Source of the DNA: a virus
Taxonomy: Duplodnaviria; Heunggongvirae; Uroviricota; Caudoviricetes
Virus record (IMG/VR): IMGVR_UViG_2698536312_000012
Strand: one strand, 5' to 3'
Length of the DNA stretch: 12,391 nucleotides
In this document: positions 1 to 11,300 of the stretch, piece by piece
Numbering within the stretch: position 1 is the stretch's first letter
How the letters are laid out: each line of letters begins with the position of its first letter
Program-made: the position numbers and the translations under genes
The notes under the pieces: generated by a model
What the model saw: only the letters and a program-made list of their open reading frames with translations
The model's database searches: none
What the model was told of the DNA's origin: nothing

Positions 1-25
1 ACACTAAATCAGTAAGTTGGCAGCA

Positions 26-1231
26 TCACCCCGCCACAGAACAATTATTGCTTTTGCCGTTGATGACAATAAAGTTTTTATCGCAGGCGTACCNNNNNNN
101 NNNNNNNNNNNNNNNNNNNNNNNNNNNNNNNNNNNNNNNNNNNNNNNNNNNNNNNNNNNNNNNNNNNNNNNNNNNNNNNNNNNNNNNNNNNNNNNNNNNN
201 NNNNNNNNNNNNNNNNNNNNNNNNNNNNNNNNNNNNNNNNNNNNNNNNNNNNNNNNNNNNNNNNNNNNNNNNNNNNNNNNNNNNNNNNNNNNNNNNNNNN
301 NNNNNNNNNNNNNNNNNNNNNNNNNNNNNNNNNNNNNNNNNNNNNNNNNNNNNNNNNNNNNNNNNNNNNNNNNNNNNNNNNNNNNNNNNNNNNNNNNNNN
401 NNNNNNNNNNNNNNNNNNNNNNNNNNNNNNNNNNNNNNNNNNNNNNNNNNNNNNNNNNNNNNNNNNNNNNNNNNNNNNNNNNNNNNNNNNNNNNNNNNNN
501 NNNNNNNNNNNNNNNNNNNNNNNNNNNNNNNNNNNNNNNNNNNNNNNNNNNNNNNNNNNNNNNNNNNNNNNNNNNNNNNNNNNNNNNNNNNNNNNNNNNN
601 NNNNNNNNNNNNNNNNNNNNNNNNNNNNNNNNNNNNNNNNNNNNNNNNNNNNNNNNNNNNNNNNNNNNNNNNNNNNNNNNNNNNNNNNNNNNNNNNNNNN
701 NNNNNNNNNNNNNNNNNNNNNNNNNNNNNNNNNNNNNNNNNNNNNNNNNNNNNNNNNNNNNNNNNNNNNNNNNNNNNNNNNNNNNNNNNNNNNNNNNNNN
801 NNNNNNNNNNNNNNNNNNNNNNNNNNNNNNNNNNNNNNNNNNNNNNNNNNNNNNNNNNNNNNNNNNNNNNNNNNNNNNNNNNNNNNNNNNNNNNNNNNNN
901 NNNNNNNNNNNNNNNNNNNNNNNNNNNNNNNNNNNNNNNNNNNNNNNNNNNCATCAGCAGGCCTTATCTTTTGTTTAGAGAAAGTCATCTTTACCCAGCT
1001 TTCTCTGGACGCATCATCAGTAAGAGCAGCCTGCGAATCTCCCATACTTACAACCTGGCTGGGCCTTATCCATCGCCCCAGCCCCTCAACCGCACCAGCA
1101 TAAAACATGACAAAAATTGTTTTTGCAGCTATTTCCCGAATTAAATATCCACGATTCTCAGTCCCTTCAGGGAAAATTAATTGTAATCTTTCCCGGATAA
1201 CATTCAATGGGGGAACAACAGGCAGATTCAT
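26..1231 (-). CDS. Methyltransferase-coupled partner protein, candidate restriction endonuclease or other effector; most of the body is masked by N
   Basis: ATG at 1231-1229 overlaps the methyltransferase stop (ATGA), implying translational coupling. The visible N-terminal 93 aa (MNLPVVPPLNVIRERLQLIFPEGTENRGYLIREIAAKTIFV...) look protein-like. The frame is consistent with TGA at 28-26, but continuity through the 858-nt N-run cannot be verified and another frame also stays open to the window edge. Confidence 0.45.
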   Translation of the reverse strand: MNLPVVPPLNVIRERLQLIFPEGTENRGYLIREIAAKTIFVMFYAGAVEGLGRWIRPSQVVSMGDSQAALTDDASRESWVKMTFSKQKIRPADXXXXXXXXXXXXXXXXXXXXXXXXXXXXXXXXXXXXXXXXXXXXXXXXXXXXXXXXXXXXXXXXXXXXXXXXXXXXXXXXXXXXXXXXXXXXXXXXXXXXXXXXXXXXXXXXXXXXXXXXXXXXXXXXXXXXXXXXXXXXXXXXXXXXXXXXXXXXXXXXXXXXXXXXXXXXXXXXXXXXXXXXXXXXXXXXXXXXXXXXXXXXXXXXXXXXXXXXXXXXXXXXXXXXXXXXXXXXXXXXXXXXXXXXXXXXXXXXXXXXXXXXXXXXXXXXXXXXXXXXXXXXXXXYACDKNFIVINGKSNNCSVAG

Positions 1232-3060
1232 GCAATCATCACTCCATAGAAACCAGCGATAGTTCTCTCAATAATCCGTCTGTGGACGCCAGCATCAATT
1301 AACGATTGAATCTCCATCACCTGCTCCAGAGAAGGCAACGGGATTGAATTCAATTCATAGGCCGAAACAGCAACACTTCCGCTTATACACCTGAACGCCC
1401 GATCGACAACATGCGAATTAAGTAGCATATCAATAACATCAGGGCGAACCGCAGAGAACAATCCGTTTGAATATACAATATTAATATGGTTTTCAACTAC
1501 TACGCCACCAGTTTCATCTATAAATCCCTGAGGTAAAATTGCCGCTAAAATCCTTCTGTCCTGTTCCTTCGATGTTGTCCGCTGAACAAGCACACATTCA
1601 GATTTTGTCACAAGGAAACCCTGTTGTGGGGTTATATCGATATAGGGAACATGATTTTTTCTGTCTGCACTAAAACGAAAACCAGCTGAAGTTATTGATT
1701 CCGCCCAGACTAATGGGTAGCTATTTTTTCCTTTCGTCGTACGCAACTGCGACTTAAATCGATTCCAGACTAACTGACCTGTAGAGACTGAGTATCCCAG
1801 ATCAGCTAAACGCGTAGACATCTGTTTTAATACATTAAGAAAACAGGCATCATCTTTAACGCGTGGCAAAAGCCACGTTGCTCCACCTTTTTCTATATCA
1901 ACATTACCTATTTTCTCAATTTTTGCTTTGTTCAACCCCTTAGGGACAAGTGAGGATACCTGGGCCCGAACTTTATGTTCTCCCGCCTTGAATGCTGTCA
2001 ACATTGTTTCCTGGAGAACATCGTCAAAGACCCCATCCCTGTCAGTGACGAAATCAAGGGCATACGGAGTAGTTTTTTCGGTCAAAAGGGTTCGCAGCGC
2101 GGTGAAATACTGCCCACCAAGAAAAGAAGTTGGCGTAAGAAATGCAATAACTCCTGTTTTCTCTTTAACCATGCGAACAGCTAAGTCGGTGAACAATCCA
2201 TATAGATTTGCATGACCAAATAACGAACGAGAATATTTTTCTCTCGTTTTAATATCGAGAGTGACACGTCCGTAAGGCGGATTCCCTACCACAAGATCAT
2301 AACCAGAAAATTTATCTTGCTGAAGCGCATCAGCAACAATAATTGTATCTTCAGGCAATCTACGTTTTACCTTTACACATAGTGGCATTAGTACAGATTC
2401 GAGCAATACCAAACTCATCCAAGCCGCAAATGGATCGATTTCTATCCCCTTTAAACGACGACTGATTCTCCTCAACATCCATTCAGGGGAAGACCCCTTG
2501 TCTTTTTTTAACATTCGAATGGCTACTGGTGCCAAAAATGCACCGCCACCACACGCAGGATCAATAACCGATGCATGAGAAAAATCAACACCAGACTTTT
2601 CAGCCAGGTCCAAGAGACGCGCTACCAAAGGTGGGGGGGTATAGTAAGCCCCCAATTCCGAACGGTAAGCGGATGGCAGCATTACCGTATAAATTGACCC
2701 AATCAGATATCCAGCGTCCTCCGCCGGAAATTGAGCAATAAGCTCACCTGTTCGTTCAGCGAGCTCGCGTGCATCACATGGAATGTCTTCTATGTAAACA
2801 GTGTGCGGTACTGCCCTCATTTTAATGCTGCTTTTTTGCTTTTTTGCAAGGGTATCCCAATATGCAGCTACGATGCTGAAGCAGTATGAGCGGGCATGCA
2901 TCAACCTTGACTGCCCGGTTTTGTAATTGCCCGCATAACCTTTGGCCATGGCTTTACAAGTTTGATATCTTTCCAGATTAGAAAACTCATTATCTGTAAA
3001 AAAATCAAAATGTTGCACATTCATAATGTAAAATCCTAATGTATCAAACATGCGGGCCAT
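1228..3060 (-). CDS. N6-adenine DNA methyltransferase, gamma class (Eco57I/TaqI-like), with C-terminal target-recognition region
   Basis: 610-aa ORF with motif order GAYYTPPPLV (motif X-like), DPACGGGAFL (AdoMet motif I) and VVGNPPYGR (catalytic motif IV), then a ~300-aa C-terminal region with TaqI-C-like features (GQLVWNRF). Start could be ATG 3060 or 3051; both have a weak RBS. Confidence 0.9.
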   Translation of the reverse strand: MARMFDTLGFYIMNVQHFDFFTDNEFSNLERYQTCKAMAKGYAGNYKTGQSRLMHARSYCFSIVAAYWDTLAKKQKSSIKMRAVPHTVYIEDIPCDARELAERTGELIAQFPAEDAGYLIGSIYTVMLPSAYRSELGAYYTPPPLVARLLDLAEKSGVDFSHASVIDPACGGGAFLAPVAIRMLKKDKGSSPEWMLRRISRRLKGIEIDPFAAWMSLVLLESVLMPLCVKVKRRLPEDTIIVADALQQDKFSGYDLVVGNPPYGRVTLDIKTREKYSRSLFGHANLYGLFTDLAVRMVKEKTGVIAFLTPTSFLGGQYFTALRTLLTEKTTPYALDFVTDRDGVFDDVLQETMLTAFKAGEHKVRAQVSSLVPKGLNKAKIEKIGNVDIEKGGATWLLPRVKDDACFLNVLKQMSTRLADLGYSVSTGQLVWNRFKSQLRTTKGKNSYPLVWAESITSAGFRFSADRKNHVPYIDITPQQGFLVTKSECVLVQRTTSKEQDRRILAAILPQGFIDETGGVVVENHINIVYSNGLFSAVRPDVIDMLLNSHVVDRAFRCISGSVAVSAYELNSIPLPSLEQVMEIQSLIDAGVHRRIIERTIAGFYGVMIA

Positions 3061-3274
3061 AACATCTCATGGTGGCGCATAGCAAACTGGCCCGAAGAAT
3101 ATCACGCACCAAGTCGATCTCATAACCCGTTATGACAATAAATCTTTGTAGCTGAACTCACTTGGTGATTTGTCAATCATTCCTGGCCTCCAGTTCGTCC
3201 TGAATCTCTTTATCGAGTTCACCGTATTTGTTAGTCCTCATCACTCACGACTTGACTTCCAGAAATAACCTTGA

Positions 3275-3631
3275 TTATTCGGGGCTATATTTTGTCACCC
3301 TGCGTATCCGCGCTTTCGCATTACGCTCAATCTGGATTAGCTTTTCTATATTTTTTCGCCTTTCCCGCTCCTCCTGGCGCAAGAGCCTTACATCATCTGC
3401 CAGTCTGGTTTCTCTTTTCGCCACAGAGAGCATCCAGTCAAATGGCTCCACAACTGCACCGCAAATTTTACAGCGGACCTGACGCTCTTTTTCGTCAACC
3501 CGGACAGAAGCGTGATGGCAATATGGTCTTTCCGATGGCTCATAAAGAAAATTAACCTGATTACGAGGGTTATCCTCTTTTACCGGAAATAAAACAATAT
3601 TGCTTAACTCATCTTCTGGTTTTATTTCCAT
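3275..3631 (-). CDS. Hypothetical zinc-ribbon protein with basic, coiled-coil-like C-terminus
   Basis: ATG at 3631 preceded by a strong SD (AGGAGAGGAG). 118 aa with C-H-H ... C-x-x-C (YCHHASV...RCKICG) and an Arg/Lys/Glu-rich tail. The ORF track extends to a GTG at 3688 without an RBS. Confidence 0.6.
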   Translation of the reverse strand: MEIKPEDELSNIVLFPVKEDNPRNQVNFLYEPSERPYCHHASVRVDEKERQVRCKICGAVVEPFDWMLSVAKRETRLADDVRLLRQEERERRKNIEKLIQIERNAKARIRRVTKYSPE

Positions 3632-3771
3632 GCTCCTCTCCTTTGATGCGAATGCCAGCGGTAATTGAAGCCTGATAGCTAATTTCACTCACAGTACCGC
3701 CTCCTGAAAATCACCCTGATAGAAAGCCGGTACACGCTGCATAACTTCACTCTTCCGGCACTCGCGACAGA

Positions 3772-4095
3772 TTATGTTCTGATGTCTGTCGTAGCNNNNN
3801 NNNNNNNNNNNNNNNNNNNNNNNNNNNNNNNNNNNNNNNNNNNNNNNNNNNNNNNNNNNNNNNNNNNNNNNNNNNNNNNNNNNNNNNNNNNNNNNNNNNN
3901 NNNNNNNNNNNNNNNNNNNNNNNNNNNNNNNNNNNNNNNNNNNNNNNNNNNNNNNNNNNNNNNNNNNNNNNNNNNNNNNNNNNNNNNNNNNNNNNNNNNN
4001 NNNNNNNNNNNNNNNNNNNNNNNNNNNNNNNNNNNNNNNNNNNNNNNNNNNNCCTTAATTTTTTCCCGCTCTTCCTGTGTAAATACTTTTGCCAT
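3772..4095 (-). CDS. Hypothetical small protein (about 107 aa), mostly masked by N
   Basis: ATG at 4095 lies 17 nt after the stop of the upstream gene; visible N-terminus MAKVFTQEEREKIK and C-terminus ATTDIRT-stop are in one frame if the N-run length is true. The interior cannot be checked. Confidence 0.35.
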   Translation of the reverse strand: MAKVFTQEEREKIKXXXXXXXXXXXXXXXXXXXXXXXXXXXXXXXXXXXXXXXXXXXXXXXXXXXXXXXXXXXXXXXXXXXXXXXXXXXXXXXXXXXXXXATTDIRT

Positions 4096-4110: not shown

Positions 4111-4836
4111 TCACTTTTCCGACACAATACGACCGGAGGAATCGACAATCTGTCGAACAATATCCCGGTGCTTGTTCAGCTCCCGCAACGCGGCGCAGAC
4201 ACGCTCCCACTTCTGGACATGACTTTTCGCCCGACGCAGTTCGCGGTTTGCCATATGCAGCGATGGTAAAACCAGGTCATCCGCTTGCGTTTCGGTGAAC
4301 GATGGCAACGACTGCACAATGTCCGCCACAGTTTCTGTTTTAATTTCTTCCTGTGTTGCAGCTTCCTGTACCGGTAACGCAACACCTGCTGGCTGAGGAA
4401 AGACTTTACCATCCGTTTCCGCTATGGATGCGGCTTTCGGCTCTGCCGGTAAATCAGCGCCCGGTATGCAGTACCGAAATTTACCGCCCTGATTCACGCG
4501 AATCAGACGCCCTTTGCTGATTGCCATGGCCAGCGATGAATTCGCCCGGCGGGAGGTAATCCCGAACATCAGTGCCAGCTCATCCGCCGTTTGTGGGCCA
4601 TGTTGTTCAATCGCCTCAGTCAGCATTTGCGCTGTCACTTTCGGTACCGGTGACACTGGTTCACTTTCACCAGCCTGAATCAGCCACCACATCGAACCCT
4701 TGTTATCCGCTTCACCACGGCGCTTCAGTTTCCACAGTTCGTTGACCGCATCTTCACGGCTGATTCCAAGGCGGGACGCCACCACATGTGAAGAGGCTCT
4801 TTTCAGTGCTTTCAGTGCGTCAAATACAGTTTCCAT
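4111..4836 (-). CDS. Hypothetical phage protein with two winged-helix-like segments
   Basis: ATG at 4836 preceded by GGAGG at about 9 nt, immediately after the DnaC-like stop (4858-4860). 241 aa, acidic central linker, protein-like composition. Confidence 0.6.
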
Positions 4837-4857
4837 TAAAACATCCTCCAACAAAAA

Positions 4858-5604
4858 TTACTTCACAACTCCCGGAAAGCTGACATTTGAACGCCAGCTA
4901 TCCCAGTTAAACGTCACCCACCGACAACCGTTCATGGTCATGCGGTCCATAATCCTCTCACCAAGAAGCGTGCTCATTGCGGCATGATTCAGGTTTGTTA
5001 ACATCCCGACACTGCACAGTGATGCTGTCCGGCGATCAATTATCTGGTGCAATACCACCTGCTCGTTTTTCGTCTCCCGCTGAATGCCTATTTCATCCAG
5101 GACCAGCAAATCAACCCCGCAAAGCTCCTGTAAAAATTTTTCACCGGATTTGCCGTTGTCGTAGCTGTCATGCAACACGCTCATGACATCAGACACGGTG
5201 ACGATAATCACGCTGCGCCCCTTCGCCATCAGCCAGTTACCCATCGCCGCTGCAAGGTGATTTTTCCCGGTGCCGGTTTTACCGCTGAACACAAAATTCG
5301 TGCACCCGGTCATCAGTTCGTCAGCTATGGATTTGGCCTGGCTCAGCGCGTATTTTTGCCCGTCGTTCTGCACCTGATAATTCGCAAACGAGCATTTGCT
5401 GTGCAGAGGCTGGATGCCCGAACGATTCAGGATTTTTTCCACCCGCAACTGGCGATTCTGGCGGTTAATCTCCTCGCTGCGTTTTCGTCCTTCAGCAAGT
5501 TGCCATTCCCGCCACTCCTCCACCGTCCGGTACGGTGGAACCGCCCCCTGTGGTGCAAGTCTGTGAATACGTTCAAGAACCCCGGCTGCCGCAATGTTTT
5601 TCAT
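4858..5604 (-). CDS. DnaC/IstB-like replication ATPase (helicase-loader analog, YdaV-like)
   Basis: Walker A GKTGTGKNHLA and Walker B LLVLDEIG; 248 aa; lies directly downstream of the O-like gene; RBS GGGGGTGA upstream of ATG 5604. Confidence 0.85.
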   Translation of the reverse strand: MKNIAAAGVLERIHRLAPQGAVPPYRTVEEWREWQLAEGRKRSEEINRQNRQLRVEKILNRSGIQPLHSKCSFANYQVQNDGQKYALSQAKSIADELMTGCTNFVFSGKTGTGKNHLAAAMGNWLMAKGRSVIIVTVSDVMSVLHDSYDNGKSGEKFLQELCGVDLLVLDEIGIQRETKNEQVVLHQIIDRRTASLCSVGMLTNLNHAAMSTLLGERIMDRMTMNGCRWVTFNWDSWRSNVSFPGVVK

Positions 5605-5610
5605 GCCACA

Positions 5611-6675
5611 TCACCCCCTGAATCCCGGCGGAATTTCGGTATCCGGTTCAGAAATATGATTCACACAACGCTGGTTGTTCGTGCCGCTTACCGGGAGCAA
5701 CCAGGGGTTTTCAAAATTCCGGTCCGGCCCAAAAAACGTCGTCGCTCGCTGAACAAATTCCGTTCCCGCTTTCCCGGTCGCCGCCAGGTATCTCGCGTAA
5801 CGCCTCACACCATCCAGCATGGTCTCTGGTGGCACCCCCTCGCGCAATCTGGCCTTCCAGGCACTGAATGCGGATTTCTTCGGGTTTGCCCCGGCACGCA
5901 ACGGGTATTCCCGCCAGACCTGTTCGAACACATCCGGATAATCCACTCGTCCCACAGGCTGCCCGGTGTTTTCCGGGGCTACCCGATCGGCTTCCCGCTG
6001 AATGGCGGAATCGGCTTCAGGCTGCTGCAGTTGGAGTGATTGCTCCGGCCTTGCGGTCATCACCTGCTGCACAGCGCCCGAATCGGCTTTCAGCGCATAC
6101 GCTGAATCGGCTTCCGGTGTCGAGCCTGCTGGCTGACCAGGATTGACGGTCTGAACATCCCCTGCCTGGTTCGTGGCGTTTTTTACGCCATGGACCATAG
6201 TGTTTTGATCTTCTTTATCTGTATCTTTATCTGTATCTGTCGTGACTCGTCGTGACATGTGCGTGACATTTCGTGACGCGCCGTGACAATCGCCATTTTG
6301 TTCCCGCTTTCTTTCCCTCTCTCGCTGCGCCCTCTTGCGCTCTGCAGGAGATTTTGCGGTTTGCGAAATATTGCCGTTGTCCTCTTTAAGCACCTGGCGT
6401 TTTTCCCATCCAGTGATTAAATCACCATCAAGTACCCGCCCCTGCATCGTCTGCAAAATTGAATCAATTACCTCTTCTGTCACGTCGAGCGCACTTGCCA
6501 AATCTTCTGTCGTGACATCAATGTGACCTCGCGTGACATTTCGTGACGCGCTCACCAGGAGGTGGATATACACTGCCATCACTGTTGCAATTGGCTGCCC
6601 TGACACCCTGGCAATTGTTCGCCACTTAGGGTCATTTGGCATGTCATGCCATAATCTGAGCCAGGCGTTAGCCAT
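5611..6675 (-). CDS. Replication initiation protein, O-like/YdaU-like, with DnaT-like C-terminal region
   Basis: ATG 6675 preceded by AGAGGTGA; 354 aa; N-terminal conserved segment WLRLWHDMPNDPKWRTIA, low-complexity acidic middle encoded by iteron repeats, C-terminal AGANPKKSAFSAWKARL...FGPDRNFENPW. Position between the CII-analog and the DnaC-like gene. Confidence 0.75.
   Translation of the reverse strand: MANAWLRLWHDMPNDPKWRTIARVSGQPIATVMAVYIHLLVSASRNVTRGHIDVTTEDLASALDVTEEVIDSILQTMQGRVLDGDLITGWEKRQVLKEDNGNISQTAKSPAERKRAQRERERKREQNGDCHGASRNVTHMSRRVTTDTDKDTDKEDQNTMVHGVKNATNQAGDVQTVNPGQPAGSTPEADSAYALKADSGAVQQVMTARPEQSLQLQQPEADSAIQREADRVAPENTGQPVGRVDYPDVFEQVWREYPLRAGANPKKSAFSAWKARLREGVPPETMLDGVRRYARYLAATGKAGTEFVQRATTFFGPDRNFENPWLLPVSGTNNQRCVNHISEPDTEIPPGFRG
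6241..6287. repeat. Iteron-like array A: five CGTGAC repeats at 10-11 bp phasing (candidate ori)
   Basis: CGTGAC at 6241, 6251, 6262, 6272, 6282; flanked on the left by tandem 12-bp tttatctgtatc x2 (6213-6236); lies inside the O-like gene as in lambda ori. Confidence 0.6.
6511..6551. repeat. Iteron-like array B: four (C/T)GTGAC repeats at 10-11 bp phasing, including a 21-bp exact copy of part of array A
   Basis: Repeats at 6511, 6522 (TGTGAC), 6532, 6542; 6531-6551 gcgtgacatttcgtgacgcgc is identical to 6261-6281. Confidence 0.6.
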
Positions 6676-6746
6676 ACTCACCTCTTCTGATACCGAATCT
6701 TTTTACTCACGAGTTGCCGGGAGCGATTCGATATGGCTATTGTCAG

Positions 6747-7172
6747 TCAATGTACTGCCACAGCATTTCCTGCCGGGCCACCACGGTTCATCTGATTGAA
6801 ACCGGCGATTGCCACTGCGACAAAATCATCAGCGTCTCTCACCAGTCGTTCATGCGTCTCCACCAGTTCCCGAAAATAAGCTGAACTGTGGCTGCGCATT
6901 CGAGCCACCAGCGGAGGTGGCATTGCCCTTTCGATCGCAGGTAACAACGCCTGAATTTTTTCAACAGCGTCAGGGGTGTCTTTATCCAGCCAACGGAAAA
7001 TCTTTTGGGTGTTGAGATAAAGCGTGTTGTGCTTGCTGTCGTTATGCAGAACCGGAAACGTCATTCCCAGTTCGAAATAAACCCTGGTTATTTCAGCTGC
7101 CGGAACTTTTTCACCGTCCGGATGCGCCCAGGCTTTCATCGCCATGCGGATGTGTTCATGCTTGATTTTCAT
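6747..7172 (-). CDS. ydaT: YdaT-like regulator (functional CII analog of Rac/CP-933P-type prophages)
   Basis: 141 aa; start ATG 7172 overlaps the upstream stop (ATGA); the sequence (MKIKHEHIRMAMKAWAHPDGEKVPAAEITRVYFELG...) matches my recollection of YdaT; position is immediately downstream of the Cro-like gene. Confidence 0.7.
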   Translation of the reverse strand: MKIKHEHIRMAMKAWAHPDGEKVPAAEITRVYFELGMTFPVLHNDSKHNTLYLNTQKIFRWLDKDTPDAVEKIQALLPAIERAMPPPLVARMRSHSSAYFRELVETHERLVRDADDFVAVAIAGFNQMNRGGPAGNAVAVH

Positions 7173-7468: not shown

Positions 7469-7533
7469 AATAGCACTGTTATTTTTAAAAGTAAATAGTG
7501 ATGCTATTTCAAAGTGATTAGCAATCTTATTAG
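7469..7533. promoter_or_regulatory. Divergent operator/promoter region with three related operator sites
   Basis: aATAGCactgTTATTt (7469-7484), aaATAGtgatgCTATTt (7493-7509), aTTAGCaatcTTATT (7518-7532); about 24-26 bp spacing; leftward promoter candidate TTTACT-17-TATTAA overlaps the sites. Confidence 0.55.
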
Positions 7534-7543
7534 AATTGGATGT

Positions 7544-8044
7544 ATGAAAAGAAAATCATTGTCAGACACCGACCTCAACGCCGCCAGAAGACTGAAAGAA
7601 ATCTGGATGGCAAAGAAATCTCAGTTGGGATTGACTCAGGAACGTGCGGCGGAAATTATGGGGTTTTCAACACAAGGGGCGGTAAGTCACTACCTAAATG
7701 GTCAAACCCCACTAAACCTTGAGGCTGTTCTAAAGTTTGCTGGCTTACTGAAAGTTCCCCCTGAGTCAATCAGGCCAGACATGGTAGATTTGCTGCAAAT
7801 TGCAAGGATGTATTGTCGAGAACCACAGCAAGATAACATAGTCGCATTACCAGCAGACACAGAACAAACAGAGGATGAACTACCGTTTGCCGTAGAGCCG
7901 ATGGAACGAGATTTAATCCATACGTTCAGAGCTTTTCCGAAAGAAGATCAAGAACACATGCTTCAGGAGATGAAAGATAAAAAAGAATCAATGGATCGTA
8001 CGGTTGCGCGGTGGTTAGCTGCACAAAAAGGCCGTCGCGCCTAA
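7544..8044 (+). CDS. paaR2: HTH (XRE-family) repressor, PaaR2-like regulator at the cI position
   Basis: HTH LTQERAAEIMGFSTQGAVSHYLNG; 166 aa from ATG 7544 (ORF track uses GTG 7514); first gene of a three-gene operon with antitoxin and ParE toxin; divergent from the Cro-like gene. Confidence 0.7.
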   Translation: MKRKSLSDTDLNAARRLKEIWMAKKSQLGLTQERAAEIMGFSTQGAVSHYLNGQTPLNLEAVLKFAGLLKVPPESIRPDMVDLLQIARMYCREPQQDNIVALPADTEQTEDELPFAVEPMERDLIHTFRAFPKEDQEHMLQEMKDKKESMDRTVARWLAAQKGRRA

Positions 8045-8063: not shown

Positions 8064-8258
8064 ATGAGTACAGTCCTTTCCCCAATGGTTTCAGAATTTG
8101 AGACAGTTGAGCAAGAAAATAGTTACAACGAATGGCTGCGGGCCAAAGTAGCAGCAAGCCTCGCGGATCCCCGCCCGGCGATTCCGCATGATGAGGTAAT
8201 GGCGGAAATGGAACAAATTATTGCCCAAATTGCTGCTGCAACTCACAGAGGTGAATAA
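8064..8258 (+). CDS. paaA2: Small antitoxin (PaaA2-like) of the ParE toxin
   Basis: 64 aa; AGGAGA SD 9 nt upstream; stop overlaps the toxin start (TAATG); acidic, helix-prone sequence typical of antitoxins. Confidence 0.75.
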   Translation: MSTVLSPMVSEFETVEQENSYNEWLRAKVAASLADPRPAIPHDEVMAEMEQIIAQIAAATHRGE

Positions 8259-8548
8259 TGTTACCCGTTTTATGGCTACCATCTGCTCGTGATGATTTGC
8301 GCCAGATCGTAGCCTACATAGCTAAAGAAAATCCCGCGGCAGCACGCAGAATGAAAATTCGAATTGAAACATCCGTTTTGCCGCTCACAGAGCATCCTTA
8401 CCTGTATCCTCCAAGCGAGCGAGTTCTTGGTCTTCGTGAAATTGTAACTCATCCTAACTACATCATCCTTTACCGAGTAACAGCATCAAGCATAGAAGTA
8501 GTAAATATTGTGCATTCTCGAAGACAGTATCCAGGCAAAAACAGTTAA
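8258..8548 (+). CDS. parE2: ParE/RelE-superfamily toxin (ParE2-like)
   Basis: 96 aa; ParE-like segments WLPSARDDLRQIVAYIAKENPAAARRM and EVVNIVHSRRQYP; translationally coupled to the upstream antitoxin. Confidence 0.85.
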   Translation: MLPVLWLPSARDDLRQIVAYIAKENPAAARRMKIRIETSVLPLTEHPYLYPPSERVLGLREIVTHPNYIILYRVTASSIEVVNIVHSRRQYPGKNS

Positions 8549-8988: not shown

Positions 8989-9354
8989 ATGGAATTTAAA
9001 GATTTACCGTCTGATGTACAGAAAACAGCAGCTCATACATTGCATTCTGTGCTGCGAGAAATCGGGAAAGATATTGCAAGCGAGCCAGCAAAAGATCTGG
9101 CCCGGAAAATCAAGACCGCTTTCGTTGAGCTTTATAATGTTGGCACTGACTCTGAAACTGTCGAGACCAAGACCGTAAGTTCACCAATATTCTCACTTGA
9201 GCCAAGCGTATTATCAGGTGAAATATGCACCGAGATTTCCAGCGAACTGCTTCCGGTAATACGAGAAGCAATTCGCCGTCGCGGTTTGGATGGAAGTTAT
9301 GATCATGACGTTCTGCAAGTTCTCAGGACAATGGTGACTTCACTGGGGATTTGA
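8989..9354 (+). CDS. Hypothetical protein (Qin ydfB/ydfC-region equivalent)
   Basis: ATG 8989 with GAGG SD; 121 aa; follows the ydfA-like gene by 12 nt; alternative start ATG 8977. Confidence 0.55.
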   Translation: MEFKDLPSDVQKTAAHTLHSVLREIGKDIASEPAKDLARKIKTAFVELYNVGTDSETVETKTVSSPIFSLEPSVLSGEICTEISSELLPVIREAIRRRGLDGSYDHDVLQVLRTMVTSLGI

Positions 9355-9764: not shown

Positions 9765-10060
9765 AAAGTGAATTTTGTGATGCGGTGAATGCGGCTCAGC
9801 GCACGCGGCACAGTTAAAAAGCGATTAGTTCCCCCGTATCGGGTGGTTATGGGTTTCCCTGTATCCGGCGTTAATTGTTAACTGGTTAACGTCACCTGGA
9901 GGCACCAGGCACCGCATCAACAAAGTTCACTTCGGTGATGAAAGGAAAGAGAAAATGTTGAATGTAGCTATTGAAAACCAGAACGGGTGGAATTATAGTG
10001 CACCTGCACCTTATAAAACGGGTGCCGGGCGTGGAAACCCGAACGTTACTCGAGCGCATA

Positions 10061-10082
10061 GCCGCGCTGAAGCGGTTTTTTT
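10061..10082 (+). terminator. Candidate intrinsic terminator or attenuator hairpin in the Rha leader
   Basis: agCCGCgctgaaGCGG followed by seven T; additional flanking complementarity cgcata / tatgcg; short stem, so weak. Confidence 0.3.
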
Positions 10083-10251
10083 ATGCGTAATGCACAGCTC
10101 CATTCAAATTATGGTGGGATGTGCAGGGCAGTCGCAAGACTGGCCGGGTTCTCGAGTGACCGGTATTTCCACCCCTGTACGTCACACCACCCTTATGGTC
10201 GTGGAAAACCTCGGTGGTGAGTTAATTAACTTATCACTCGAGGATGCCATC

Positions 10252-10809
10252 ATGGCTACTATCCCTGCCCTTTCTCACCCTGACGTAACCATCGAAAATG
10301 GTCGCGCTGTCACTACGTCTATTGCGATCGCAGAGTTCTTTGGCAAGCGTCACGACAATGTGTTACGTGCCATCGCAAATACTGAATGCTCACCTGAATT
10401 TAACGCCCTCAATTTTGAGGACGTCACCTACACTGACGCCAAAGGCGAAAAACGCCCGATGTACCAAATCACCAAAAACGGCTTCGTTTTCCTGGTGATG
10501 GGATTCACTGGCAAAAAAGCCGCTGCATTTAAAGAAGCCTACATTGCTGAGTTCGATCGCATGGAGGCCGAACTGCGCCAGAATAACACCCCACCCACTG
10601 ACAAAATAATTCCAGGCGATGGCCGCACCCTGGTTGTTCACTTCGACGAACGCGGCAACATCAGATTCACCGAAACCGTTCCTGATGGCGCACGGGTCTG
10701 TACCATGGAGACTTTCCGGTTTTATCTGGAAGAACAGGGATGGACTCTTGTTAACCGGGGCGCAATTAAAAATATGACTGTAGAGCAATTACTCAAAATT
10801 CATTGTTGA
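10252..10809 (+). CDS. rha: Rha-family phage regulatory protein
   Basis: Rha-like segment AIAEFFGKRHDNVLRAIAN...MYQITKNGFVFLVMGFTGKKAAAFKEAYIAEFDRME; ATG 10252 with AGGA SD 7 nt upstream puts the domain near the N-terminus. The same frame is open back to an ATG at 9955 with a strong SD (AGGAAAGAG), so a 284-aa form is possible. Confidence 0.7.
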   Translation: MATIPALSHPDVTIENGRAVTTSIAIAEFFGKRHDNVLRAIANTECSPEFNALNFEDVTYTDAKGEKRPMYQITKNGFVFLVMGFTGKKAAAFKEAYIAEFDRMEAELRQNNTPPTDKIIPGDGRTLVVHFDERGNIRFTETVPDGARVCTMETFRFYLEEQGWTLVNRGAIKNMTVEQLLKIHC

Positions 10810-10819
10810 GGACGCGATA

Positions 10820-11008
10820 ATGGAAACGTTATTACCAAACGTTAATACGACTGAAGGTTGTTTTGAAATTGGTGTCACTATCAGTAACCCTGTATTTACT
10901 GAAGATGCCATTAACAAGAGAAAACACGAACGGGAGCTATTAAATAAAATATGCATTGTTTCAATGCTGGCTCGTTTGCGTCTGATGCAAAAAGGATGCT
11001 GGCGATGA
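10820..11008 (+). CDS. dicB: DicB cell-division inhibitor
   Basis: 62 aa (METLLPNVNTTEGCFEIGVTISNPVFTEDAINKRK...CIVSMLARLRLM) matching my recollection of DicB; GAGGA SD 7 nt upstream; stop overlaps the next start (ATGA). Confidence 0.8.
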   Translation: METLLPNVNTTEGCFEIGVTISNPVFTEDAINKRKHERELLNKICIVSMLARLRLMQKGCWR

Positions 11009-11196
11009 ATACAGCATTTGCACTCGTTCTGACCGTTATTCTTAATACGGGCGAACCAGCTGAACTGGTTACCGGAGTATACAACTCCATGAAAGAATGC
11101 GTGGCTGCTGCAGCTGAACAGAAAATTCCCGGTAACTGTTATCCGGTTGATAAAATCATTCACCAGGATAATAAAGAAGTCCCGGCAGGTCTTTAA
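11005..11196 (+). CDS. ydfD: YdfD-like small lysis-associated protein
   Basis: 63 aa with N-terminal hydrophobic segment (MNTAFALVLTVILNTGEP...) and conserved KIPGNCYPVDKIIHQDN; AAGGA SD 8 nt upstream; ATGA overlap with dicB. Confidence 0.75.
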   Translation: MNTAFALVLTVILNTGEPAELVTGVYNSMKECVAAAAEQKIPGNCYPVDKIIHQDNKEVPAGL

Positions 11197-11300
11197 AGCA
11201 GCCACGTAATAAATATCCGGTTTCATTTTTATATGCCAGCAATGGCAGGGATTTGTTCACCCTTAAATCTGTAATGAGGTTAAAACAAAATGAGTNNAAA

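Follow-up and report, generated by a model that had tools for sequence, protein, structure and literature searches.

A probable type II restriction-modification pair of the PstI family carried by an IS1-truncated lambdoid prophage of Shigella sonnei

Results

Two overlapping genes near the left end of the window (the whole stretch of 12,391 nucleotides that was analysed) very probably constitute an orthodox type II restriction-modification (R-M) system, carried as cargo (a moron) by a lambdoid prophage that was cut back by IS1. The locus corresponds to one in Shigella sonnei (e.g. Ss046), where it lies in a decayed lambda-like prophage. The genes are a PstI-family R-M pair that is already catalogued in RefSeq and PADLOC and is not new: the RefSeq annotation names both of them, and PADLOC type II R-M profiles match over the full length. 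A first-pass annotation, made from the letters of the window, had left two options, R-M or a methyltransferase-associated system of an undescribed kind. The R-M option holds, as a type II system, and the other, a novel effector, falls, since both Pfam domains of the endonuclease are present. The features of the locus are:

1..30, no strand assigned: IS1 terminal inverted repeat, equal to the reverse complement of Ss046 locus L007 from position 9065 on (GGTGATGCTGCCAACTTACTGATTTAGTGT)
31..93, plus strand: 3' remnant of a parE toxin gene, outside the endonuclease gene and running on into the mask
149..1231, minus strand: gene of a BsuBI/PstI-family restriction endonuclease of 360 aa (Pfam, PADLOC, SdaI match; full gene taken from matching public loci)
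1228..1231, minus strand: ATGA stop/start overlap leading from the methyltransferase to the endonuclease (read from the sequence)
1228..3060, minus strand: gene of a gamma-class N6-adenine DNA methyltransferase (ORF of 610 codons; Pfam, PADLOC, predicted fold)
3025..3135, minus strand: 5' leader that stays with the cassette, including the Shine-Dalgarno TAGGA, in S. sonnei, Klebsiella and Citrobacter despite differing upstream genes

The methyltransferase

The translation of the 610-codon frame displays, on direct reading, the motif order X, I, IV of the gamma class: motif X is YYTPPPLV (aa 139-146), the SAM-binding motif I is DPACGGGAF (aa 167-175) and motif IV is NPPY (aa 260-263). All three are invariant in the homologue alignment A5. 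Pfam assigns the protein to Eco57I (51.4 bits for a cut-off of 25.3, E = 1.7e-13) and N6_Mtase (37.6 bits for a cut-off of 20.4, E = 2.1e-9), and the PADLOC MTase_II profile PDLC03338 matches full-length at 1.8e-300. Searches with NCBIfam models gave sub-threshold matches only. The AlphaFold model (pLDDT 87.6) consists of a helical N-terminal region (residues ~20-130), a catalytic Rossmann domain (130-340) and a putative C-terminal target-recognition domain (350-604). Foldseek retrieved CamA, M.BseCI and M.TaqI with this model at E = 1e-17 to 1e-21, and its target-normalised TM score against the whole of M.TaqI is 0.72-0.76. The first-pass assignment to a gamma-class Eco57I/TaqI-like enzyme of 610 codons is therefore right at the level of domain and fold (Pfam, PDB matches, Foldseek). 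Of the two Pfam domains that it expected, Eco57I was found and TaqI_C was not detected by sequence: there is no TaqI_C match in the protein at E ≤ 1, yet the model superposes on the C-terminal domains of M.TaqI, CamA and M.BseCI.

The true start of the protein is most likely Met13 (window position 3024), which would give 598 aa. This start is favoured because nearly all homologues listed have ~590-600 aa, and because the Shine-Dalgarno TAGGA and the Met13 ATG are invariant in four genera, the upstream ATG being ATA in Citrobacter. The region is AT-rich, as proposed for the cargo at first pass, with a GC fraction of 0.42-0.46 over ~1000-3750 against 0.50-0.59 over 4250-7000.

The endonuclease partner

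Only codons 1-93 of the partner gene (952-1231) are visible, and its stop codon lies inside a run of N. About three quarters of the gene, with the entire catalytic domain, are masked in the window. The visible 93 aa match PF17728, the N-terminal HTH/winged-helix domain, with 38.6 bits for a cut-off of 27 (E = 1.2e-9), which turns the loose likeness to BsuBI/PstI-type N-domains noted at first pass into a domain match. On the complete protein of 360 aa, taken from public loci that match, the same domain scores 106.6 bits (1.2e-30). The C-terminal catalytic domain PF06616, whose region is masked in the window, was scored on public loci with visible flanks matching at ~99-100%; the 360-aa endonuclease of L001 and Ss046 reaches 152.2 bits (9.3e-45). 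In addition, the PADLOC REase_II profile PDLC03589 matches full-length at 2.8e-128; among NCBIfam models, there is no specific one for the endonuclease.

The structure of SdaI (2ixs) is the only significant match found by phmmer with the 360-aa sequence (1.8e-16) and is also the sole Foldseek match at E ≤ 0.001 (2ixs_A, E = 3.3e-15, probability 1.00). The model used is only moderately confident (pLDDT 77, pTM 0.53), with a global TM score to SdaI of 0.39-0.44. Residues P257-D258 and E279, with the Asp/Glu pair equivalent to D233/E248 of SdaI, do not vary in either of two alignments: A3, in which R.EcoGIII and SdaI are among the sequences, and A4, with 52 members of the subfamily. The pair represents the conserved catalytic acidic residues of the PD-(D/E)XK variant, one of the folds for which a check was suggested at first pass. 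Loss of a catalytic lysine was considered, as SdaI K251 aligns to an Ala, and was ruled out: R.EcoGIII, which has Thr at this position, is reported to be biochemically active (PMC3893438), so a lysine there is not a requirement of the family.

The partner had been given ~400 aa and a 3' end at position 26, which is wrong, since unmasked copies with ~99-100% flank identity encode 360 aa. The ORF 26-1231 is an artefact that arises only by translating N codons. In S. sonnei Ss046, the sequence behind the two N runs measures 892 and 273 nt, whereas the runs themselves have 858 and 257 N. With the runs thus 34 and 16 nt too short, frame and length are not transferable across them. A reading of the partner through the N run was accordingly rejected, the distal visible bases belonging to parE and IS1. 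In window numbering, the endonuclease stop falls between ~149 and 183, the N run being 34 nt too short.

Genomic context and spread of the cassette

The R-M pair lies downstream of the replication genes and on the same strand. Intact relatives have it between replication genes and either parDE/DUF968/RusA/Q or DinI/DUF968/RusA. The same-strand order and these relatives agree with its proposed placement as nin-region cargo, at the distal end of the replication operon. Beyond the pair, window positions 31-91 align to 11046-11106 of L001, within an annotated RelE/ParE toxin CDS (10846-11157). The IS1 copy truncates the prophage just past the pair, ~150 nt beyond the endonuclease stop, and the next gene called at the Ss046 locus has IS1 transposase Pfam domains.

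The same cassette, methyltransferase first and endonuclease second, occurs in S. sonnei, in E. coli, in Klebsiella and Citrobacter lambdoid prophages, in a Serratia P2-like prophage, at Burkholderia and Pseudomonas chromosomal loci and on Burkholderia, Xanthomonas and Pseudomonas plasmids. This pairing is present in all contexts examined, and over the range from Enterobacteriaceae to Burkholderia and Pseudomonas, identity stays >60% for the 360-aa endonuclease and the 598-aa methyltransferase. Among phage records, a DNA-level search gave no match, and at the protein level the sole matches were distant genes of EcoGIII type from Stx phages. Two profiles of fused proteins, PDLC03359 (840 positions) and phrog_1639 (838 positions), match the methyltransferase with their N-terminal part and the endonuclease with their C-terminal part, which argues for a functional link between the two. 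The genes studied here are two ORFs with a stop/start overlap and not a fused type IIC/IIG enzyme.

It is a distinct, if lesser, possibility that the enzymes are as described but serve mainly in selfish post-segregational killing that preserves the prophage stump, rather than in anti-phage defence. The pair survives right at the edge of the IS1-mediated truncation that took the late genes, toxin-antitoxin addiction modules flank it or lie nearby (a parDE remnant and a PaaA2-ParE pair), and the cassette is mobile among phages, plasmids and chromosomal loci. However, this role is compatible with defence, the two not being mutually exclusive. Moreover, S. sonnei is a young clone, so that identity across its isolates is no proof of selection; its clonal youth alone could account for the retention.

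Coupling, leader and expression

At 1228-1231, the methyltransferase ends in GCA TGA and the partner begins with ATG AAT, which bears out the ATGA overlap described at first pass. The identical 4-nt overlap is found in the Serratia, Klebsiella and Citrobacter copies. The conserved leader contains a candidate extended -10 element, TGnTATTCT, found by eye at 3104-3096, and may act as a promoter. The 213-nt gap upstream of the methyltransferase otherwise holds only a 22-codon ORF remnant.

No C-protein controller was identified next to the R-M genes: the ORF at 3275-3631 corresponds to phrog_1621, whose function is unassigned, and has no PADLOC match. This upstream 118-aa ORF was also rejected as a third component, as it is not kept beside the cassette in Citrobacter, Serratia and Burkholderia relatives. 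A 78-aa ORF with a weak HTH lies directly upstream of the methyltransferase in the Burkholderia relative only.

The pair sits in the repressor-controlled rightward operon, which counts against its presumed expression in the lysogen. Expression confined to the phage early rightward promoter after induction, with a role in the lytic cycle (modification of progeny DNA and/or degradation of host DNA), appears very improbable. The pair does share the strand and position of the replication operon, and a consensus scan of the 213-nt gap for sigma-70 promoters found nothing. Against this, the ~115-nt leader with its candidate extended -10 follows the cassette into unrelated upstream contexts, and on plasmids and at chromosomal loci the cassette apparently also works as a unit. 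Furthermore, the prophage-borne EcoGIII system methylates 98.8% of CTGCAG sites in the DNA of lysogen RM13514 (PMC3893438).

Integrity of the endonuclease gene

With the catalytic domain masked, the integrity of the endonuclease in this genome is assumed from nearly identical public loci. Eight public loci have the exact methyltransferase, and in each of them the gene (1083 nt) is called intact at 360 aa; five of the eight are complete chromosomes (including CP000038.1). The exact endonuclease and the exact methyltransferase are each present on at least 1000 contigs. The endonuclease cluster also contains frameshifted and partial variants, such as the 344-aa P0002, whose tail diverges after a run of A's; most of the partial entries are labelled so by their sources and probably reflect contig ends. 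The endonuclease gene has an A6 run near codon 324.

These data bear on a degenerate system, in which the methyltransferase would be active and the endonuclease inactivated here, so that this genome would keep a solitary prophage methyltransferase whose role would be epigenetic at most. The masked catalytic domain, the frameshift-like 344-aa variant and the many partial entries would fit such decay, as would the abundance of IS elements and pseudogenes in S. sonnei and the IS1 copy close to the endonuclease stop. The uniform calls at loci with the exact methyltransferase, the many contigs with an intact sequence and the conserved catalytic residues nonetheless make it very improbable. The idea of the partner as a novel effector outside restriction, belonging to a methyltransferase-associated defence system not yet described, draws on nothing beyond its being 70% masked and is extremely improbable given two BsuBI/PstI Pfam domains far above cut-off, a full-length PADLOC match and homology to SdaI.

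Proposed mechanism and significance

Taking together the gene identities, domains, conserved catalytic residues, fold, coupling and M-then-R pairing across hosts observed here, an orthodox type II system would operate as follows. The 598/610-aa methyltransferase, acting as a monomer, would use S-adenosylmethionine to methylate adenine at N6 within a specific, probably palindromic, site, for whose recognition it would rely on the target-recognition domain at its C-terminus. By ATGA coupling, the same mRNA would also yield the 360-aa endonuclease, which would contact the same site with its N-terminal winged helix and, where the DNA is unmethylated, cleave it with its C-terminal PD-(D/E)XK-type domain. 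The system would be expected to restrict DNA of phages or plasmids that enters the cell unmodified. Cells losing the cassette would die as a side effect, so that the remnant of the prophage would be stabilised. This scheme presumes that the enzymes are active in this strain and that the lysogen expresses them from a leader or promoter of the cassette's own.

The masked partner thus reads as a standard restriction endonuclease and the cassette as a type II R-M module that is already catalogued and moves widely, otherwise of little import. The system probably adds to the restriction barriers met by DNA or therapeutic phages entering S. sonnei, and provides a further case of R-M systems in the accessory slot of lambdoid prophages.

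Relation to known systems and recognition site

EcoGIII, a PstI isoschizomer (CTGCAG), is the R-M system of Stx2a-converting prophages of E. coli O104:H4 and O145:H28 RM13514. Like the present pair, it is a prophage-borne type II system in the M-then-R order with overlapping genes. Its gamma adenine methyltransferase is of the Eco57I type and its endonuclease belongs to the BsuBI/PstI family, and homology to the present pair extends across most of the length of each protein. However, the two endonucleases share only 27% and the two methyltransferases only 25% identity, and there is no similarity at the DNA level. In addition, EcoGIII encodes a shorter endonuclease (317 against 360 aa) and a shorter methyltransferase (489 against 598 aa), and its genes directly follow the cI repressor gene, whereas the present ones follow the replication genes.

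At 25-27% identity to EcoGIII, CTGCAG specificity is not transferable to the present system. No close similarity to a proven CTGCAG enzyme, as would place the pair among the PstI isoschizomers (PstI, BsuBI, EcoGIII), was found. PADLOC profiles of 317 and 494 positions, which from their lengths we infer to represent the PstI group, score only 2e-28 and 2e-50, PDLC03589 and PDLC03338 being the best. The papers covered on methylomes of S. sonnei and of the BsuBI/PstI family, and a preprint on that of the Burkholderia cepacia complex, assign no recognition motif to the present subfamily.

SdaI recognizes CCTGCAGG. It is conceivable, though rather unlikely, that the well-separated branch of the PstI family with a 360-aa endonuclease and a 598-aa methyltransferase recognizes a site other than CTGCAG or that of SdaI, so far unassigned to any enzyme. 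If so, a species-wide m6A mark would be added, as the cassette appears widespread in S. sonnei, and it could affect gene regulation as a side effect, in the way that Fang et al. reportedly described in 2012 for M.EcoGIII in E. coli O104:H4, in work cited by PMC3893438.

At the structural level, SdaI, the only solved structure matching the endonuclease (identity ~20-26%), has the same helical N-terminal domain, alpha/beta C-terminal nuclease domain and catalytic Asp/Glu pair as the predicted protein. The present endonuclease differs by ~45 extra N-terminal residues and by the Ala in place of K251, a position occupied by Thr in R.EcoGIII. M.TaqI, M.BseCI and CamA belong to the monomeric gamma-class N6-adenine methyltransferases whose recognition domain is C-terminal. 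The present methyltransferase shares with them the two-domain fold, NPPY and the motif order; its identity to them is 13-19%, and it carries an extra helical N-terminal region of ~110 aa.

Identity of the cassette

The methyltransferase and its partner are assigned to an ordinary type II restriction-modification (R-M) system of the BsuBI/PstI family. The system is already known, being annotated in RefSeq and covered by dedicated PADLOC profiles. As the first-pass annotation had read it, the methyltransferase gene is a minus-strand ORF (1228-3060) whose call and translation give 610 codons, and its stop codon TGA shares an ATGA (1228-1231) with the start codon of the minus-strand ORF that follows. 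Three motifs follow one another in its translation in the order of the gamma class:

aa 139-146, motif X, YYTPPPLV
aa 167-175, motif I, DPACGGGAF
aa 260-263, motif IV, NPPY

Of the two Pfam domains expected at first reading, Eco57I was found (1.7e-13, together with N6_Mtase at 2.1e-9), and the Pfam search returned no TaqI_C match in the methyltransferase. The PADLOC MTase_II profile PDLC03338 matches it over its full length (1.8e-300), and its best solved relative by sequence is M.TaqI. The AlphaFold model (pLDDT 87.6, pTM 0.86) superposes with CamA, M.BseCI and M.TaqI, the last with a target-normalised TM of 0.72-0.76. The enzyme is thus predicted to be a monomeric adenine methyltransferase, its recognition domain lying at the C-terminus and a helical region of ~110 aa at the N-terminus.

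Unmasking of the endonuclease gene

The window contains three N runs (94-951, 3796-4052 and 11296-11297), the first of which hides most of the partner. The ~400-aa ORF proposed for it (26-1231) was rejected, as it arises solely from translating across the N codons. Megablast of window 952-3300 matched 2 of 5426 complete E. coli genomes and none of the phage records. In both genomes, RefSeq labels the methyltransferase "HsdM family class I SAM-dependent methyltransferase" and its 360-aa partner "BsuBI/PstI family type II restriction endonuclease". The exact methyltransferase sequence occurs in 3929 blocks of public assemblies, including complete chromosomes such as CP000038.1, which we take to be Shigella sonnei Ss046. 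An intact 360-aa endonuclease call lies directly 3' of it in 8 of the 8 loci listed. Each of the two exact proteins is found on at least 1000 contigs, whose sources name Shigella sonnei.

Alignment of the window with the Ss046 locus showed that both mask flanks are identical. Both long N runs fall short of the Ss046 sequence they replace (858 vs 892 nt for 94-951, 257 vs 273 nt for 3796-4052), hence the frame and length of an ORF that spans one have no meaning. Alternatively, this shortfall could correspond to real deletions in the window's genome. Two features lie at the window edge:

1-30, IS1 terminal repeat, followed in Ss046 by the IS1 transposase gene
31-93, continuing into the mask, strand opposite the endonuclease, last ~37 codons of the parE toxin gene

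Because 1-30 is IS1 and 31-91 aligns within parE on the other strand, the endonuclease gene ends inside the mask, and not at 26. P0002, the representative of the endonuclease protein cluster, is a 344-aa variant that diverges after ...SALPFK, where the gene has an A6 run, owing either to a frameshifted allele or to a sequencing error at the homopolymer in a single assembly.

Family and catalytic residues of the endonuclease

By themselves, the 93 visible endonuclease residues score above the gathering threshold of PF17728 (BsuBI/PstI HTH domain). The complete protein from public loci matches PF17728 (1.2e-30) and PF06616 (9.3e-45), as well as the PADLOC REase_II profile PDLC03589 over its full length (2.8e-128). 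Its only solved relative is the restriction endonuclease SdaI (PDB 2ixs), detected both by sequence (1.8e-16) and by fold (Foldseek, 3.3e-15). These matches bear out the earlier R-M reading, including the BsuBI/PstI likeness it proposed, and exclude a novel effector as the partner. In addition, the fused-enzyme profiles PDLC03359 and phrog_1639, whose first half matches the methyltransferase and whose last third matches the endonuclease, give independent evidence that the two proteins function together.

The acidic catalytic residues D258 and E279 (equivalent to SdaI D233 and E248) are invariant in 52 subfamily members, R.EcoGIII and SdaI. At the position of SdaI K251, the endonuclease has Ala and R.EcoGIII has Thr. 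Since R.EcoGIII is reported to be biochemically active (PMC3893438), we rejected the idea that this Ala is a sign of inactivity.

EcoGIII, carried by Stx2a phages, is the best-known prophage member of the family and methylates CTGCAG in the lysogen (PMC3893438). It adjoins cI, whereas the window pair sits after the replication genes. Homology extends along most of the length, but identity is only 27% for the endonuclease and 25% for the methyltransferase, so that on sequence grounds the specificity of EcoGIII cannot be transferred to the window pair. A literature search covering S. sonnei, BsuBI/PstI-family and Burkholderia cepacia complex methylomes turned up no motif for the pair's subfamily.

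Start codon and leader

Nearly all methyltransferase homologues (best 120 of >3700) are ~590-600 aa long. Moreover, ~115 nt 5' of Met13 are kept among S. sonnei, Klebsiella and Citrobacter despite differing upstream genes, TAGGA and the Met13 ATG are invariant in these and also in Serratia, and the ATG upstream of Met13 is ATA in Citrobacter. Hence, translation most likely starts at window 3024 (Met13). A candidate extended -10 element, TGnTATTCT, lies in the leader at 3104-3096. As a consensus scan of the leader upstream of the methyltransferase found no promoter, we can only infer that the cassette is expressed in the lysogen. No controller (C) protein gene lies beside the cassette in the window; the upstream ORF is phrog_1621, of unassigned function in PHROG. 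In the gap 5' of the methyltransferase, a 22-codon ORF (3174-3242, minus strand) resembles the 3' end of a 119-aa gene located before the cassette in Klebsiella and is probably a recombination scar.

Prophage context

The host element is a lambdoid prophage of S. sonnei type, truncated by IS1. Its genes run from the repressor (7514-8044, plus strand) through cro-like, YdaT-like, replisome organizer, DnaC/IstB-like ATPase, DUF1627, DUF977 and phrog_1621 genes to the methyltransferase and endonuclease, all from the cro-like gene onwards on the minus strand. The DUF977 gene is partly masked, and its domain was read in matching public loci. In intact E. coli relatives, parDE, DUF968, RusA and Q come after the pair, in agreement with the proposed nin-type cargo placement at the distal end of the replication operon. 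The AT-richness noted earlier is also observed (GC 0.42-0.46 over ~1000-3750 vs 0.50-0.59 over 4250-7000). IS1 truncates the S. sonnei prophage ~150 nt past the endonuclease stop; host genes for mannitol dehydrogenase, YdfZ, a GntR regulator and a short-chain dehydrogenase lie beyond it. In S. sonnei genomes, this IS1 marks a deletion that has removed parD, the greater part of parE and every late gene of the prophage.

Directly 3' of the repressor gene, a 64-aa PaaA2-type antitoxin and a 96-aa ParE toxin at 8064-8548 (plus strand) form a second toxin-antitoxin module of the element. Rfam matches to isrK (61 bits) and C4 antisense RNA (71 bits) at 10006-10194 (plus strand) correspond to the 5' end of a 284-aa ORF (9955-10809) with Ash and Rha domains, a layout that we take to resemble the P1/P7 immI-type antirepressor control region. 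Direct repeats containing GTGAC are clustered inside the replisome-organizer gene (6249-6287 and 6509-6547) and are probably origin iterons.

Distribution of the cassette

Each protein has >3700 homologues; the best 120 of each come from several genera of Proteobacteria, with at least 63% (endonuclease) and 56% (methyltransferase) identity to the query. Klebsiella and Citrobacter lambdoid prophages carry the cassette in the same slot, and a Serratia P2-like prophage carries it between gpA and the portal gene. Chromosomal loci are found in Burkholderia and Pseudomonas, and the cassette-bearing plasmids, mostly conjugative, are chiefly from Xanthomonas, Burkholderia and Pseudomonas.

In three Burkholderia and Pseudomonas loci, a conserved ORF of 85-88 aa lies directly 3' of the endonuclease (L013, 6133-6390; L017, 6123-6389; L018, 4039-4305). 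It has no Pfam match, is 71% identical between L013 and L017, and does not occur in the cassettes of enterobacterial prophages. This ORF may represent a third, optional component. In the Burkholderia locus L013, a 78-aa ORF (2965-3201) located 4 nt 5' of the methyltransferase, and missing from the S. sonnei cassette, has weak sub-threshold similarity to HTH_3 and may encode a controller protein.
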